Below are positions 4,443 to 18,590 of a stretch of 20,000 nucleotides of DNA, piece by piece. The stretch's first letter is position 1, and each line of letters opens with the position of its first letter. Made by a program: the position numbers and the translations under genes. The stretch comes from an uncultured virus (IMG/VR IMGVR_UViG_3300044701_002172) (Duplodnaviria; Heunggongvirae; Uroviricota; Caudoviricetes), in the IMG/VR virus record IMGVR_UViG_3300044701_002172, positions 108,803-128,802 of that record. One strand, 5' to 3'. The notes under the pieces were generated by a model. That model did not search any database. It was not told the origin of the DNA and saw nothing but the letters and a program-made list of their open reading frames with translations.

Positions 4443-6467
4443 CTATTCAGCGTTTCCTATTAGATAATATGGGGTTGACCTAAAACCAAGAGCATCTGAT
4501 ATACTGCCATACTTCTTCTGACCAGCTTTCTTTCCAGATTTATAGAGACCAGCTGGCTCTAGTGTAAAAATCTTAGATCCTTTCTTTGTAATTAGACCAT
4601 ATATGGTCATTGCTATTTGTTTCTTAAAATAATGATTTAATTGTGATGTGCCACCACTCATGAAAAACCACAACGCTTCTAGTTTTGCTACTCTATTCTC
4701 TTGATGAGTGACCTTAGAGTATTGTTTTATTGCTCTTCTTTGTTTACCTGATTGTGTCTTTGATCCATAATTATAAGCATCTCTAGTTGATTTTGGTAGT
4801 AAGCTTTCAATCTTTTCATTTGATATATCTCTACCAAATTGACCTAAAGCAGCCCAGATTTCTTTGATTTCTTTTTCATCACTATTAGAAGATCCTGTTA
4901 TGCTCTTGTCTATTAATAACGAATTTAATGTCACTAAGTACAATCCATAGATGTTATTCTTTAATGTATTGTCAGCAATGTTTTTGGGTAATAAACTGTT
5001 GATAGACAATTTTATTTGCTCTTGATCTCTAGACTCATTGATAATTGTTTGTTTGTTTAATACTTGAGGAAATTTGTTACTTGGAACCGTGACACCAATG
5101 GCAGCCATAGCAGCAGCAAATGCCATCTTTCTCTTTTGTATTATTTGATTGAATATAGTTCTTGTGCCTGGATACTTTTTCAATATATCTGCTACCAGAG
5201 TAAAACCAGCCCCACCTGTGTATGCTCCAATAACTCTACCTTCTCTATTAGTTGGTAAAGCATTCCATGTCATAGAAGCAGTGACAAGACTATAATGTTC
5301 ATCTGTTAATACTATGTTTCTATCCTTTAATCTTGGTATGTTTTGTGATAGATTTGAATAGTTAAAACTAAAATTTACAGCGAAAGTTTCTATAGTATGC
5401 TTGTAATCTATTTTATTAATTGTAACAAGTGTTTCAATCTCTTTCTTCAATGTGTTTGGATCATTGATACCAGAAAAGTAATCAATTATCTCAGTATATT
5501 CATCAACTAATTCATCCAACTCAGGTGGAAGATTTTGTGACATTCCAGTAAGATATACTGTTGGATTTTCTGATATACTTTTCTTCAATGAAATTGGTAT
5601 GACAGCTTTTGTTGTTATCAGTCTACGGGTTAATAAATTAAAACTGGCGGCATTTGAAACTTCTCCACTAACAATCTTATCAGTTTCTTTCTTATATGAA
5701 TCGATTGTTGATTTAAATGAGGATGTTTTGATAGCATAAATGTCTGCTGGGTTGAGCATGTCAGCTCTAGTATTAATTCCTTGCTCAGCAATGATTCTCA
5801 AACATGCTTCAGTCAGTGGAATGTCTTTAACAAGTCTAACATGATAACTTGTTGAATGACAATAAATGTATGAGGCATATCCTCCTTGTATTATATTTTT
5901 GCTTTTTAGTGCTTTGGCTGTCCAGAAAGCACTCTTGACCCAGCTCAAAGCATCTTCGTTCTCGCCAGAGAAAATGTATAACTTATTTTGGAGAGAAGAT
6001 TTTGATGTTGACCTACCACCAACCAAAGATGATTTTTTATTTTTAAATGTATCTACTTTCTTAACTAATCCTTCTTGTTTCTTTTTAAATGATGCTAAAT
6101 CTCGTAAGTCTTTTTTTGTTCTTGTATCAACTTTCTTTCTTGTGATTGTCTTTATGCTTTGCTTCAATTGATGTAATTCTTCTAATGTAGATAATATAGA
6201 AGAATTGAGCAATGGTAATGCTTCGTGTATAGATCTCAGATGTTTCTTTTGTGTGTCGCTTAAACTAGATGAGATTAGAGGATATGAAATATATCTATTG
6301 TATTTTGTGTATTTGTCTTCACACAAAGCATCTATTAATCCGTCTATTGATGGCTCTTGTCCTCTGGTTTCACATACAGCAAAATAAGCCAAGGCAAAAC
6401 AATGAACCATTTCCTTGGCTGTAGTGTCTCTGCTTAAACTAAAATCACCCTGATATCTTTCTCTCAT
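4443..6467 (-). CDS. Large basic protein, putative PD-(D/E)XK-like nuclease fold
   Basis: 674-aa ORF; motifs TAKEMVHC, WVKSA, NPADIY...IPISLKK resemble the E...(P)AD...SLK variant of the restriction-endonuclease-like fold; function is inference. Confidence 0.55.
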   Translation of the reverse strand: MRERYQGDFSLSRDTTAKEMVHCFALAYFAVCETRGQEPSIDGLIDALCEDKYTKYNRYISYPLISSSLSDTQKKHLRSIHEALPLLNSSILSTLEELHQLKQSIKTITRKKVDTRTKKDLRDLASFKKKQEGLVKKVDTFKNKKSSLVGGRSTSKSSLQNKLYIFSGENEDALSWVKSAFWTAKALKSKNIIQGGYASYIYCHSTSYHVRLVKDIPLTEACLRIIAEQGINTRADMLNPADIYAIKTSSFKSTIDSYKKETDKIVSGEVSNAASFNLLTRRLITTKAVIPISLKKSISENPTVYLTGMSQNLPPELDELVDEYTEIIDYFSGINDPNTLKKEIETLVTINKIDYKHTIETFAVNFSFNYSNLSQNIPRLKDRNIVLTDEHYSLVTASMTWNALPTNREGRVIGAYTGGAGFTLVADILKKYPGTRTIFNQIIQKRKMAFAAAMAAIGVTVPSNKFPQVLNKQTIINESRDQEQIKLSINSLLPKNIADNTLKNNIYGLYLVTLNSLLIDKSITGSSNSDEKEIKEIWAALGQFGRDISNEKIESLLPKSTRDAYNYGSKTQSGKQRRAIKQYSKVTHQENRVAKLEALWFFMSGGTSQLNHYFKKQIAMTIYGLITKKGSKIFTLEPAGLYKSGKKAGQKKYGSISDALGFRSTPYYLIGNAE

Positions 6468-10653: not shown

Positions 10654-11166
10654 TTATGCTACCCATTCTGGTTTACGTTCTGGCATACGAAGATAATTAG
10701 ATGCAACCCAAGGTTTGGACGAAATATACATTTTGTAAGCAGTAAAAGTGTCAATGCTTGTGTCAAGTTTAAATTCATCTGGCATCGCTCGTGTAAATTC
10801 TGTTACTTCTGTGATCTTACCCTTGGGAAACAAATAATATGCTTCAACTAAAGTATTATAACATGAATGAATTTTATTGTAACGAATAGCATATTCATCA
10901 CAAAGGTTCATGCCATGTTTAATCAGCCAATAGGCATTGTGAATAGATGCCGCTGCCCACTGTGTACAGGGATGATTACGAAATGCTCCTTTTGCTGTAG
11001 CATATGGAGTTTGATCTATTTTGTGAATATCGCCATAACTATGATACCATTTAGATGCTACAATAGAGAGCATTTGACAGCATTCAAGAGGCATCTTAAC
11101 AATATGCTTGTCGGGAAGACAAATAGCAGATTCAGCTGGCCATTGAGAAGTAACAAAAATGTTCAT
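10654..11166 (-). CDS. Pyrimidine-dimer DNA glycosylase family protein (Pyr_excise/DenV-related)
   Basis: MNIFV...LPDKHIVKMPLECCQMLS, NHPCTQW, RAMPDE, AYKMY...KPW motifs. Confidence 0.8.
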   Translation of the reverse strand: MNIFVTSQWPAESAICLPDKHIVKMPLECCQMLSIVASKWYHSYGDIHKIDQTPYATAKGAFRNHPCTQWAAASIHNAYWLIKHGMNLCDEYAIRYNKIHSCYNTLVEAYYLFPKGKITEVTEFTRAMPDEFKLDTSIDTFTAYKMYISSKPWVASNYLRMPERKPEWVA

Positions 11167-11330
11167 AGGATTCCAACTTCCTTTAAGTAATTACGATAGC
11201 GCATAAATCGACCAAGACTGGGTTGGTTCACAACTTGTAACTGATGGCAAATTTCACAATAGCACAACCAATCATACCATGGTGTGCTAGGATCTAATAC
11301 GTGATACTTTATTTCTGATTGCTTCGACAT
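11163..11330 (-). CDS. Small Cys-containing protein (55 aa, ...DPSTPWYDWLCYCEICHQL...RFMRYRNYLKEVGIL)
   Basis: Manual translation; ATGA overlap with the downstream gene; 5' end overlaps the halogenase homolog by 44 nt. Confidence 0.7.
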   Translation of the reverse strand: MSKQSEIKYHVLDPSTPWYDWLCYCEICHQLQVVNQPSLGRFMRYRNYLKEVGIL

Positions 11331-12705
11331 AATCAAGATGATGTGTTGTGTCAGTTTTGTATTCTGGTTGCTTGAAGGGTAATACCTCAGAAGATATGTC
11401 CCAATTATGATCTTTAGCCGCTATAGTGTGCATAAACATAATATAATCATCATGATCAATATATTGATCACCTAAAAGATTTATAATATGTTCTTGATAA
11501 TCATATTTTACATTTTTATGGTCTATCCAAAATCGAGTATCATCACGTTGACATGTTTTATATTGAGTTAAAATAAAAGCTGCCCAAAACTTGTATCGAC
11601 TTTCAATCCTATCATTAATAACTTCCCTCAAACTATTCACAATATTTTTATCTGGAATATCTTTCCATTGTTGTAAAATAGGTTTTAAATGATTAATGAC
11701 ATCAATTGTCAATGTTAGCCCAGGAGCATCTAATGGTTCTAGAAATCCATTAGCTAAACCAAGAGTACAGTAATTTTCGTGATATGTTTTTTTATTATAT
11801 CGAGGATAAAAATTAACGAGCCTCGGTTCTATATCTACACCAACATCATTAATAAACTCTTCTCTGGCTCTATCTTCACTGACATAGTTAGAACTAAATG
11901 TATACCCTGTACCAATTCTCGAATAAGTTGGTGTTATCCATCTCCACCCATACTTCATAGTTTTTGCTACTGTGTATGGATGAAATTGATTTCTTTTATC
12001 AGTATATTCTAGTGGATATACAAAAGCTTTGTTTGTTAACAATACATCAGACAAATCAACATATTCTTCATTCAAAATATCATTGTAACCAGTGGCAATA
12101 ATATAATAATCTGCTGTGATTACGGTGTCTTTATCAGTAATAAGTCTCTCAATTTTATCATTTGTTTTTTCTACTTTAACAATAGTTTCTGCTAATGTAG
12201 AAACATGTTTGTGCTTCTTACAATGCTTAGAAATAAAATTAATATACTTACCAGCATCAAAATGCCATGATTTTGGATAAAAGAAATCAGATTTAAATAC
12301 GTGATTATCTTTTACTGTATCATTTAAATTACAGGCAATAAGATCATTGATTGAAACATCTTTCGGTTTATTTGCCAAAAGTCTATAAAACATAGTTGTA
12401 TGAATGCTCATGGCATTCGATGACCTATTGTTTTTGAAATTGTGAATAAAGTTGTTTTTAGACCAGTTCTTATAATAGACACCATACTTCACAGCAGCAT
12501 CGGATTCGGCAATAAAAATATCATGGTTTACACCAATTTCTTGATGAAAACCATTTAACTTAATTGTATTGGATTCCCCAACCCCAATGCTAGGAATATG
12601 GGGAGAACCTACAATTATAATTTCACTAAAAAACTCTTTTTTAACTGCCATAGCAGCACAAGCCATCCAGCCTGCTGCCCCAGTTCCAACAATACAGAGT
12701 TTCAT
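11287..12705 (-). CDS. Flavin-dependent tryptophan-halogenase-family (PrnA-like) protein with an altered active-site loop
   Basis: GTGAAG FAD motif, IGVGES, conserved Lys (AAVKYGV), WHFDA, GWRWITP, RIGTGYTFSS, GFLEPLDAPG; start MKLCIVG at 12705 with ATGA overlap. Confidence 0.9.
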   Translation of the reverse strand: MKLCIVGTGAAGWMACAAMAVKKEFFSEIIIVGSPHIPSIGVGESNTIKLNGFHQEIGVNHDIFIAESDAAVKYGVYYKNWSKNNFIHNFKNNRSSNAMSIHTTMFYRLLANKPKDVSINDLIACNLNDTVKDNHVFKSDFFYPKSWHFDAGKYINFISKHCKKHKHVSTLAETIVKVEKTNDKIERLITDKDTVITADYYIIATGYNDILNEEYVDLSDVLLTNKAFVYPLEYTDKRNQFHPYTVAKTMKYGWRWITPTYSRIGTGYTFSSNYVSEDRAREEFINDVGVDIEPRLVNFYPRYNKKTYHENYCTLGLANGFLEPLDAPGLTLTIDVINHLKPILQQWKDIPDKNIVNSLREVINDRIESRYKFWAAFILTQYKTCQRDDTRFWIDHKNVKYDYQEHIINLLGDQYIDHDDYIMFMHTIAAKDHNWDISSEVLPFKQPEYKTDTTHHLDYVEAIRNKVSRIRS

Positions 12706-16120: not shown

Positions 16121-16178
16121 AGTATAGACCATAAAAAAGGGGGCGTCAACCCCCTTGTGTCGGTTTCAGAACTGTCCA
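16121..16178 (-). promoter_or_regulatory. Complete early promoter cassette; the hairpin plus T-run also fits a terminator for the RNA-repair genes
   Basis: AAGGGGG-TTGACG-CCCCCTT-TTTT; 17-bp spacer to TATACT (16126..16121); box GTGTCGGTT-TCAG-AACTGTCCA 16157-16178. Confidence 0.85.
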
Positions 16179-16636
16179 TTTCCTTGACCAACATCAAACA
16201 CCCAGATGCCACGCTCAATCCACATGTTCACCACACGCTGGCGGTCATCAAAGACACCCAGAATCCTATGAGTTTTAATGATTTCATCAGCAATCTCACC
16301 TTTAACAATAGCATCATCACGGTGATCTTTATACTTTCTCATATACAACCCATCCCATTTGAAACCAAATTTGGTGAGCCACTCTTCTGTTTGATCACGA
16401 TAATCATCTGACCGACCAGATACAAAGAACAGATCAGCATTCATAATTCCCTTACTGGCATGTAGAGATTTGTATACAAGTTCTACTGCTAGGTTGGGAA
16501 CATCTTCACTCAGTCCTTTGTTCCAAGCATCCCAGTTACGGGGTTTGGTTGCCACATACTGACGACGATGGCGAACATCACAGATAGTTCCATCGAGATC
16601 GAAAACGAAGCACTTCTTTTGTTCCACATTCAACAT
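16166..16636 (-). CDS. HAD-family phosphatase, T4 PNKP 3'-phosphatase-like domain
   Basis: FDLDGT, VSGR, LYMR...DHRDDAIVK, FDDRQRVV motifs as in the PseT C-terminal domain; start could also be GTG 16627. Confidence 0.88.
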   Translation of the reverse strand: MLNVEQKKCFVFDLDGTICDVRHRRQYVATKPRNWDAWNKGLSEDVPNLAVELVYKSLHASKGIMNADLFFVSGRSDDYRDQTEEWLTKFGFKWDGLYMRKYKDHRDDAIVKGEIADEIIKTHRILGVFDDRQRVVNMWIERGIWVFDVGQGNGQF

Positions 16637-17087
16637 AATCAAATCCTTCAGATACAGTTGGTTTTTCAAATTGATGATACATTCTTTTCAGAATGTCTTT
16701 GGGAATGAACTTACCTTCACGATGATTATTTCGTTCCAGTGCTTCTTCTAAAGGAATCTCAAAGTAAACTGCTCCTCTGTGACAATGTGACGGCAGTTTA
16801 TTGAGTTTTTTCTTTCGTGCTTTGACACTGAGATTCGTCTGATCCCATATAATATTTTTGCCATTGTCAATGGCATATGGGATCAGTTTCTCCATCATCC
16901 GTGTTGCTTCTGTGATATACTGATCGAACACTTCATTATATGTTTTGCCTTCTTTTTTGGCATAATAATCAATATAGTAATCTGTCGAGAGAACCACAGA
17001 ATTTTTCCAATAGTCCAGAGCAAGAAGTTTATCCACATAGGTAGATTTCCCACTGGTGGGTATACCACAGAGCATTACACATTCCAT
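16578..17087 (-). CDS. P-loop kinase (AAA_33), polynucleotide 5'-kinase-like
   Basis: GIPTSGKST Walker A, LSTD, IIWDQTN, RNNHR lid; lies between the RNA ligase and the phosphatase. Confidence 0.85.
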   Translation of the reverse strand: MECVMLCGIPTSGKSTYVDKLLALDYWKNSVVLSTDYYIDYYAKKEGKTYNEVFDQYITEATRMMEKLIPYAIDNGKNIIWDQTNLSVKARKKKLNKLPSHCHRGAVYFEIPLEEALERNNHREGKFIPKDILKRMYHQFEKPTVSEGFDYVECGTKEVLRFRSRWNYL

Positions 17088-18244
17088 GACAAACCTCCAA
17101 ACAACCAGCGATTCTGGTCAATTTTAGTTTGAGTGGTGAGTAATTTGCTGATCATGTCAACAATGGTCTGGCGAGACCCTTTACCACCTTTCATAGCATA
17201 CATGATCGGGGCGTGGATTGGCAAGATTTTGGTCTGGACAAACTGGGTAGCAAAATCCTTTCGGTCAGGATACATGATACAACCAGCATTATACATGTCT
17301 GCCATCTCACTGGCAAGGTCGTCTACAGCCAGCCAGAAGGCGTTCTGGAACGCTTTAAGGCGGGTAGCGTCGTCTGGGGTCAGCAACGGCACAAGATCGT
17401 CTACAGAGTCACTGAGGATGGTCTGGAGGACGTTTTTCTCCTGACTGATCTGGTCTTTTGATTTGTGACGAAGCACATACTCATCTGCCTTGACTTTGAC
17501 CATGTGACCATTATCAAAACGGAGAACAACACCTTCTCCATCATCCCACTCACGAACTTGTTTCACAAACAAATCAATGTTTTGAACAGCAAGACCATCA
17601 ACTGCTTTGACTACAGGAATATCCCTAGCAGAAGCATAGTTCTTCATAGCATCATAATGTACATAATTACCATCAGATACATACCTCATGGCAGTCAGAA
17701 TGAGTTGATCTTCAGGATAATCAACCACAATACGGTTCTTACGAGAGCACCACTCAAAAATAGGAGTGATGTTTCGTTGGAAGCACTTGTGAATAAACTG
17801 AGAATAATGTTTTTTATCCGCAATAAAATACTCAGCATTCATTGCTACATCAGTAACACCAGCCTTTGTACCTAAACGAAAACCTTCTTTGGTTGGAATA
17901 GGACGAATCATAGACCCATCCAGTTTCTCCAACACCACATGAGGTTCGTATAGATTGATCTTGTTGATTGCTGTCTCTTCACGCTCACCAGCATTAAAGA
18001 ACTTGTGATACGGACGGGAGATAAGATTACCAGTGGCAGTATCAAAGATCAGACCACGACATTCACGACGAATCTTCATGTTGTAATGAGATCGCTCACG
18101 AATAAGTGAGAAAGTATCATCAAACGCCACCATGTAGTTAACAACGGTATACCAATCCTTCACCATCACCTTGAACTCGGGACGATCTTCAATGTGAGGG
18201 ATCACATCATCAATATGTTTGATCTCAGGAAAATCATAGTTCAT
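17075..18244 (-). CDS. rnlA: RNA ligase 1 (T4 Rnl1 family)
   Basis: ECRGLIF, KFFN, motif I EKLDGS, FE, NRIVVDY, EGVV, VKVK; start may be 18244, 18250 or 18253. Confidence 0.92.
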   Translation of the reverse strand: MNYDFPEIKHIDDVIPHIEDRPEFKVMVKDWYTVVNYMVAFDDTFSLIRERSHYNMKIRRECRGLIFDTATGNLISRPYHKFFNAGEREETAINKINLYEPHVVLEKLDGSMIRPIPTKEGFRLGTKAGVTDVAMNAEYFIADKKHYSQFIHKCFQRNITPIFEWCSRKNRIVVDYPEDQLILTAMRYVSDGNYVHYDAMKNYASARDIPVVKAVDGLAVQNIDLFVKQVREWDDGEGVVLRFDNGHMVKVKADEYVLRHKSKDQISQEKNVLQTILSDSVDDLVPLLTPDDATRLKAFQNAFWLAVDDLASEMADMYNAGCIMYPDRKDFATQFVQTKILPIHAPIMYAMKGGKGSRQTIVDMISKLLTTQTKIDQNRWLFGGLSWNV

Positions 18245-18590
18245 AGTCATCATCCCAGGGTGCTTTACGATCTAATAGTTTACGAATGCTTTCTACTGCT
18301 TCTGGATCTGGTGGTTGATTTAATCTTTCCGTAAGAGCATCAAAATCTGTTTGTGATAGAACAATACGCTCTGGAGGATATGATCCTTTACCCCAGAATG
18401 TCTCAAATGCCCACTTATAATTCATGTCTTCCCACCCACCATTCAGTGAAGACCAGAACGATCCCCAGATATGATAATCATCAAATCTAAACCCTTCATG
18501 GCACATCAACCTGAACCACCACCACAATGGAGTGTACATAATCGGTTTAAATCCGATTAACCTTTTGTATATGAACACTGGAATGTACAT
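18234..18590 (-). CDS. Hypothetical Trp-rich protein
   Basis: 118-aa ORF; C-terminal RIVLSQTDFDALTERLNQPP...LLDRKAPW. Confidence 0.75.
   Translation of the reverse strand: MYIPVFIYKRLIGFKPIMYTPLWWWFRLMCHEGFRFDDYHIWGSFWSSLNGGWEDMNYKWAFETFWGKGSYPPERIVLSQTDFDALTERLNQPPDPEAVESIRKLLDRKAPWDDDYEL

Follow-up and report, generated by a model that had tools for sequence, protein, structure and literature searches.

A flavoprotein of the tryptophan halogenase family, encoded by an uncultured phage, reads DAPG at the positions where PrnA reads ESTG (346–349), and belongs to a conserved phage clade in which one of the two backbone amides associated with halide binding is gone. The remote-halogenation machinery is kept (a lysine some 10 angstrom off, the aromatic site next to it, the tunnel and two tryptophans), and on the simplest account the flavin continues to generate an electrophile that passes to Lys73 (PrnA Lys79). 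Our preferred reading, held tentatively and a little short of an even chance, is that enzymes of the clade go on forming hypohalous acid and use it at this lysine to halogenate an electron-rich aromatic, with bromide or iodide rather than chloride.

The gene and its setting

The window, by which is meant the whole stretch of 20,000 nucleotides that was analysed, comprises bases 108803–128802 of the 128.8 kb viral record G000, which has an estimated completeness of 66%. Because this record carries a photosystem II reaction-centre gene (psbA; PF00124, E 1e-52) and its ORF list includes recognisable T4-type structural and replication genes, the source virus is assigned by gene content as a T4-like cyanophage carrying psbA. 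Four of five phage records carry psbA, and the hosts are accordingly judged to include cyanobacteria. There is one PF04820 match per record, in G000 and in each of the five related records, one of which (98% complete) encodes a protein identical to that of the window (P0001). The gene (Table 1) is uninterrupted by stop codons and lies between a DUF7468 gene, the stop of which overlaps its ATG, and a pyrimidine-dimer glycosylase gene, with small hypothetical genes around.

Several other features of the window were recorded. A 55-residue ORF with a CxCxxC-like stretch (11163–11330, minus strand) overlaps the last 44 bases of the halogenase-like gene; it has no PHROG match, many unrelated contigs match its core (11239–11285) only, and it probably represents a small gene that is widespread in phages. 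A T4-type RNA repair set is present at 16166–18253 (minus strand), in which polynucleotide kinase is split into a kinase gene (16578–17087) and a HAD phosphatase gene (16166–16669) beside RNA ligase 1. A 674-residue ORF at 4443–6467 (minus strand) has no Pfam match and lies within a stretch of 33–37% G+C. Between 8001 and 9000 the G+C content is 53%, against about 38% in the surroundings, and an ORF of 154–179 residues located here belongs to a family that recurs near the clade's gene in five loci. The T4-type late promoter, which we take as TATAAATA, was absent from the window, where about one would be expected by chance, and ATAAATA was absent from the coding strand within 7 kb upstream of the gene; a hint of early or middle timing may be seen here. 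Two lake metatranscriptome runs from one study contain relatives' contigs over parts of the gene, but with DNA carry-over uncontrolled they do not count here as evidence of expression.

Table 1. Coordinates of the gene, its motifs and an associated gene family; positions are those of the window unless a locus is given
Feature	Position	Strand	Remarks
PrnA-fold flavoprotein gene, 472 aa (P0001), Trp_halogenase PF04820	11287..12705	-	243 bits against a cut-off of 21; model pLDDT 94.8
FAD-binding GxGxxG (GTGAAG), residues 7-12	12670..12687	-	Glycines 99-100% in clade
Lys73, catalytic Lys79 of PrnA	12487..12489	-	By alignment; 148/148 clade sequences
H88-x-F90, PrnA H101/F103 aromatic substrate site	12436..12444	-	95% each in clade
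WRWITP, residues 254-259	11929..11946	-	WxWxIP retains both Trp and the Pro; Thr258 in place of Ile; Arg255 fixed
FLEPLDAPG, residues 321-329, PrnA 341-349	11719..11745	-	Profile alignment
Asp326 codon	11728-11730	-	PrnA E346
Ala327 codon	11725-11727	-	PrnA S347
Pro328 codon	11722-11724	-	PrnA T348; first helix residue in model
Gly329 codon	11719-11721	-	PrnA G349
Gln381	11563..11565	-	Replaces the His (PrnA H395) usual elsewhere in the family; fixed in clade with Asp326
YgaP-like gene, examples	L032:1516-1734, L011:4461-4670, L042:3792-4001		Plus five more loci

Register of the DAPG motif and the halide site

The register was taken from a profile of 90 homologues, with residue numbers counted along the PrnA row. 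FLEPLDAPG aligned without gaps to FLEPLESTG of wild-type PrnA (2apg), FLEPLDSTG of the PrnA E346D mutant (2jkc) and FIEPLESTG of VirX1 (6qgm), confirming the replacement of ESTG proposed in the initial annotation and leading to rejection of a misregistered alignment. The segments that the annotation had listed as retained, namely GTGAAG, AAVKYGV, WHFDA and WxW..P (as GWRWITP), are all present. Relative to PrnA, the substitutions are E346D, S347A, T348P, H395Q and I276T, the first of which reportedly inactivates PrnA when introduced as a mutation.

The halide in RebH is held by the amide nitrogens of T359 and G360 (PMC5945002), and in AbeH it sits at the T357 and G358 amides, 3.2 angstrom away from the flavin's re-face (PMC11840605). 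The equivalent pair here is Pro328, which has no amide hydrogen, and the retained Gly329, so the predicted loss of one of two donors was upheld. Since proline places a ring carbon on the side to which the amide hydrogen would be directed, some 1.5 angstrom from the nitrogen, the conventional chloride site appears altered: judged by geometry, a chloride 3.2–3.3 angstrom from the residue-348 nitrogen would be untenable unless the backbone moves. With regard to the neighbouring residues, E346Q in PrnA is about 100-fold slower and K79A abolishes activity (PMC5727139), and modelling indicates that Glu346 holds HOCl and deprotonates the Wheland intermediate (PMC9764358). Phenol halogenases work without the glutamate, however, and a Glu-to-Asp change in MalA retains low activity (PMC8407142). 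The proposal that E346D and S347A add to the effect of the proline therefore stands only in part: Glu346 is missing from active phenol halogenases, and S347A adds little, Ala being present in 45 of 111 representatives outside the clade (among the best 150).

The family motifs described in PMC8407142 are WxWxIP, Fx.Px.Sx.G and FX[DE]PX[EFL]. Where the last of these is joined to Glu346 the window protein has Asp326 (outside representatives among the best 150: Glu in 105 of 111, Asp in none), and at the Ser of the Fx.Px.Sx.G tunnel motif it has Ala327. The strict WxWxI(P) annotation motif given in PMC13519999 is broken by Thr258 at the Ile position, as in 148 of 148 clade sequences; WxWxTP can also be read in some proteins outside the clade. 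The features of a variant A tryptophan-type halogenase that are present are PF04820 membership with a PrnA-type fold, GxGxxG, Lys79 and both tryptophans of WxWxIP. The protein thus belongs to PF04820 by fold and descent and is predicted to be closest in working to variant A flavin-dependent halogenases, as a non-canonical member, since it departs from the family at the halide amide, at Glu346 and in the annotation motif.

Conservation, phylogeny and selection

Of the 120 best homologues among 1637 matches (43–99% identity), 118 read DAPG, and the other two DSPG and DAGG. Profile scores at viral loci were at least 498 bits for full-length DAPG proteins against at most 260 for Glu-bearing ones, and an exhaustive search of 50%-identity representatives yielded about 29 full-length proteins at 412 bits or more, the next scoring 268. 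Among the best 150 representatives, 39 belong to the clade, fragments included, and at covered sites these have Asp346 in 37/37, Pro348 in 36/37, Gln395 in 36/36 and Lys79 in 30/30; the 111 outside have Glu346 in 105, His395 in 102 and Asp346 or Pro348 in none, position 348 being T (82), N (16), S (6) or others. Sequences were labelled as clade members by their motif, both here and in the comparison of 148 with 53 sequences below, which makes the Asp count in part a product of the labelling; the independent tests are the score gap and the tree. S347A was rejected as a clade marker, given the frequency of Ala outside.

The tree was built with FastTree from 149 full-length proteins (fragments below 420 residues dropped), on match columns 1–410 of the profile made from the clade itself, with midpoint rooting. 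In it the 29 Asp/Pro-type proteins form one group with support of 1.0 on a stem of 0.57 substitutions per site. The deepest branch of the clade is P0144, an unusually Ser/Thr/Asn-rich protein known from short Logan contigs only, which has FLDPLDSPT, Gln395, WKWTIP and the lysine. Since it carries Asp346, Pro348 and Gln395 without WRWITP, it would appear that these three residues arose together and before that motif. Nine proteins from eight cultured-phage records, VirX1 included, fall outside the clade; eight have Glu, one Gln and none Pro.

Comparison of 148 clade sequences with 53 others revealed Gln at position 395 in all of the former and His in all of the latter. Lys73, GVGE, W254, W256, F321, E323, P324, L325 and G329 are invariant in the 148, and other fixed changes include R255 and T258 (within WRWITP). 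In 97% the Glu that follows the second strand has become G33, a flavin-site change (E38 to G). In PrnA numbering, the clade has also lost G322 and W328, along with the DCxGF pattern. Among proteins outside it, those without Glu346 tend to be without His395 as well (3/6 against 5/104; Fisher p 0.005, uncorrected for relatedness). The two residues are hydrogen-bonded in PrnA. Glu346 was lost independently, to Gln, Ala, Gly or Arg, in P0161, P0180, P0223, P0238, P0243, P0250 and a protein of the cultured Synechococcus phage Sf-CH11, the halogenase homologue of which (L101:720-2117) reads QATS.

Relaxed selection was not found. The window gene differs from that of L003 by 112.5 synonymous and 38.5 non-synonymous differences (dN/dS 0.070); of 18 pairs with pN under 0.25, 16 showed amino-acid changes, and in these dN/dS was 0.05–0.20. 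Across 30 distinct genes the third positions of the Asp, Ala and Pro codons vary with the residues constant. The expectation that phage homologues with DAPG would form a conserved clade under purifying selection was thus borne out, and by these sequence comparisons decay of the gene is ruled out; sequencing error was rejected too, on the strength of near-identical intact copies in other runs, the conservation of the clade and dN/dS.

Occurrence and gene neighbourhoods

Of 47 viral stretches matched by a degenerate motif pattern, 44 code for proteins of the clade. Many homologues lie on unassigned metagenome contigs. Among 62 records of cultured phages there was no close relative, the best identity being about 31%. 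Two clade peptide patterns, searched across 185,579 prokaryote species (GTDB), gave 105 pattern matches and two confirmed relatives (24–25% identity), both with Glu. Within the limits of these searches, which for cells means the two-pattern GTDB scan, the clade appears to be phage-only, found on viral or unassigned contigs, and cellular members are less likely. Some clade loci have T4 core genes around them and no photosynthesis genes in view. Near-identical DNA was found in runs labelled aquatic or marine from six studies, and in four freshwater runs from which the window DNA may itself derive. BFVD, PHROGs, NCBIfam and the ESM Atlas give the protein generic halogenase labels only, and no description of the clade was found in the literature searched, which did not extend to the supplementary phage lists of the VirX1 paper.

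No fixed pathway context was evident across 31 loci, which have 16 different upstream and 18 different downstream neighbours. Genes resembling 2OG oxygenases are present in 17 of the 31, adjacent in seven, and tail-collar or tail-chaperone genes in three. The copy in the window has no fibre genes near it. A gene for a YgaP-like membrane protein of 69–72 residues with a GxCP motif is present in eight of the 31 loci, directly upstream in six. It was rejected as an obligate partner, being absent from G000 by a profile search that detected the copies at other loci; a search of five phage records, run without a positive control, also found none. One clade member (P0077, L031:4001-6112) is fused at its C-terminus to DUF6445 (26.8 bits, cut-off 24), a domain that looks 2OG-oxygenase-like by its HxD...H pattern. 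In L047:4001-7485 and L010:4915-7280 a DAPG gene lies close to a conventional EATS-type halogenase gene; the presence of both in one phage hints that they may have different jobs.

What the rebuilt pocket may do

According to the preferred reading, FADH2 from a host reductase and oxygen would give the C4a-hydroperoxide. Host supply is likely, because a search that was positive in 13 of 14 control genomes found no PF01613 flavin reductase in five phage records, of which two have a completeness of 90% or more. Pro348 would then remove one of two amide donors, its ring carbon filling part of the crystallographic chloride site, a change expected to cost chloride most. For Thal, the calculated barriers to forming HOX rise from 1.3 kcal/mol with iodide to 5.7 with bromide and 12.6 with chloride (PMC7948982); the barrier is thus highest for chloride and almost nil for iodide, and bromide and iodide are favoured here because they need least help from the pocket. 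The HOX would move through the retained tunnel to Lys73. There, in an open site, the shortened Asp/Gln pair may act as a base that is weaker or differently placed, such as would suit an activated ring, for instance a phenol, tyrosine or indole. The lysine is needed for HOX delivery and the tryptophans are proposed to bar substrate from the flavin (PMC8407142). Further support comes from the nearest folds, which are tryptophan-type halogenases ahead of QhpG and geranylgeranyl reductase, and from the retention of an acid at 346. The C-terminal segment after W393 has 79 residues (clade median 84.5, others 101, VirX1 113), which is consistent with an open site.

Several observations count against this reading. 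The absence of Pro348 from all 111 outside representatives (among the best 150) and all nine cultured-phage proteins means that there is no precedent for a working pocket of this kind with any halide, and to our knowledge no halogenase has proline at 348. In steric terms a filled pocket could hinder larger halides still more, the three published motifs are broken, and there are the further flavin-site changes (E38 to G, and loss of DCxGF). Bromide and iodide are scarce in fresh water, and the runs that best match the window DNA are labelled freshwater. Prediction of halide preference from sequence is also unreliable, since the preference of BrvH is not explicable from its pocket (PMC5945002; likewise PMC8269204), and QhpG keeps two such tryptophans, Trp181 and Trp183, and yet hydroxylates a protein tryptophan (PMC7876137). 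Of the loss of conventional halogenation that had been predicted at the outset, the altered active site stands, but loss of the chemistry does not follow, Lys79 and both tryptophans being invariant in the clade. As to the suggested alternatives to it, a changed halide preference is the best reading and a hydroxylase is possible; a reductase has no positive support.

It is somewhat unlikely, though a serious contender, that the clade left halogen chemistry: with proline closing the halide site, the tunnel and lysine would carry to an aromatic or a protein either another oxidant or a non-halide nucleophile in oxidised form. In the main form of this idea, which is unlikely, the halogenase scaffold would serve an oxygenase or oxidase that needs no halide, and its hydroperoxyflavin would hydroxylate a substrate (perhaps a protein residue, as in QhpG) or release hydrogen peroxide. 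Pro348, Asp346, Gln395, the Thr in WxWxIP and the flavin-site changes became fixed together on the long stem, as might be expected of such a switch, and QhpG itself is a halogenase-like hydroxylase. However, a direct hydroxylase needs neither Lys79 nor the HxF site, which known enzymes place some 10 angstrom from the flavin and which are invariant or nearly so here. Moreover, P0001 had no hit to the QhpG model NF049967 at E 0.001 (the basal P0144 scored 20.1 bits against a cut-off of 240), QhpG trails the top halogenase match by 13 Z units, and proline is not a monooxygenase signature, the QhpG loop being Pro267-Leu268-Ser269...Asn271 (PMC7876137). The 2OG-Fe(II) oxygenase-like genes nearby and the DUF6445 fusion would suit an oxygenase, but phage halogenases of the ordinary kind often adjoin 2OG oxygenases as well (PMC2938197).

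Improbable, too, is an ordinary chlorinating or brominating halogenase, in which a backbone shift or a new polar side chain (Thr258, for example) replaces the amide and the changes tune substrate choice only. The Gly349 amide is retained; the helix begins at Pro328 in the AlphaFold model, which contains neither FAD nor halide, and the first helix position is a common structural place for proline; position 348 varies outside the clade; and Bmp5 halogenates without the standard motifs (PMC13519999). Nevertheless, the amide NH is kept in all variants among the 111 outside representatives, and near-invariance in the clade suggests selection for proline, the only natural exceptions seen being DAGG and DASG.

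It is quite improbable that the gene is decaying, or that its product is a reductase or binds flavin or a ligand without catalysing anything. Three departures at the catalytic loop and loss of DCxGF and of the acidic residue after the second strand could be read in this way, but the low dN/dS, the intact frame and the invariant lysine argue otherwise, and a reductase in particular found no positive support, the geranylgeranyl reductase model TIGR02032 scoring 20 bits against a cut-off of 158.8 and the structure 3atq matching with a Z of 18.1. Least probable is oxidation by the flavin hydroperoxide of a non-halide nucleophile (sulfide, thiocyanate or similar), the product taking the same tunnel to Lys73: the tunnel and lysine are kept with the anion site changed, E. 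coli YgaP carries a rhodanese domain and the YgaP-like gene recurs across different gene contexts, but that match is weak (best E 0.005, short of the Pfam threshold), searches of G000 and four other records did not find the gene, and no precedent is known to us.

Significance

The determinants of halide preference in flavin-dependent halogenases are an open question (PMC5945002, PMC8269204), as is the role of many phage halogenase homologues (PMC10452541). In this clade, nature has in effect run an experiment on the halide pocket under strong selection: about 29 full-length clusters at 50% identity share the proline. A brominase or iodinase that shuns chloride would offer a starting point for biocatalysis, besides demonstrating that the halide site seen in crystals can be dispensed with. 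If the proteins do not halogenate, these phage genes have been mislabelled as tryptophan halogenases, and a departure from halogen chemistry would amount to a new, phage-only reaction type on the PrnA scaffold. Motif-based mining pipelines would miss clade proteins at present.

Comparison with known systems

The closest structural matches of the model were PyrH (2wes; Z 39.8), 2pyx (38.0), MibH (5uao; 36.4) and VirX1 (35.7), Foldseek being in agreement; across these tryptophan-type halogenases the rmsd was 2.6–3.2 over 436–455 aligned residues. Lower matches were CndH (27.2), QhpG (26.7; rmsd 3.6 over 329 aligned), RadH (23.5) and PltM (19.2). The protein shares with PrnA, RebH and PyrH the fold, GxGxxG, Lys79, HxF, the two tryptophans, F341–L345 and G349, but it is only about 21–23% identical to them in structure alignments and differs by the five substitutions given above and a shorter C-terminal region. 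VirX1, the iodinase of cyanophage Syn10, is likewise phage-encoded, with the same fold, a GEST loop type and Lys79; in contrast, it has FIEPLESTG, His at 395 and WVWNIP, is 530 rather than 472 residues long, and lies outside the clade in the tree. BrvH and MibH, the open-site halogenases, share with the protein its fold, the lack of a tryptophan lid and the possibility of larger or peptide substrates (PMC5945002), but BrvH keeps Glu349 and the amide donors Thr351 and Ser352 (PMC5945002). Phenol halogenases of the PltM and RadH type halogenate without an equivalent of Glu346 (PMC8407142), as the clade would, whereas their folds are more distant and the clade keeps an acid at that position. QhpG, a peptidyl-tryptophan dihydroxylase, is similarly a halogenase-like flavoprotein with two channel tryptophans, but it is more remote in fold, and as described in PMC7876137 no lysine is listed among its channel residues and the equivalent of position 348 is not proline.
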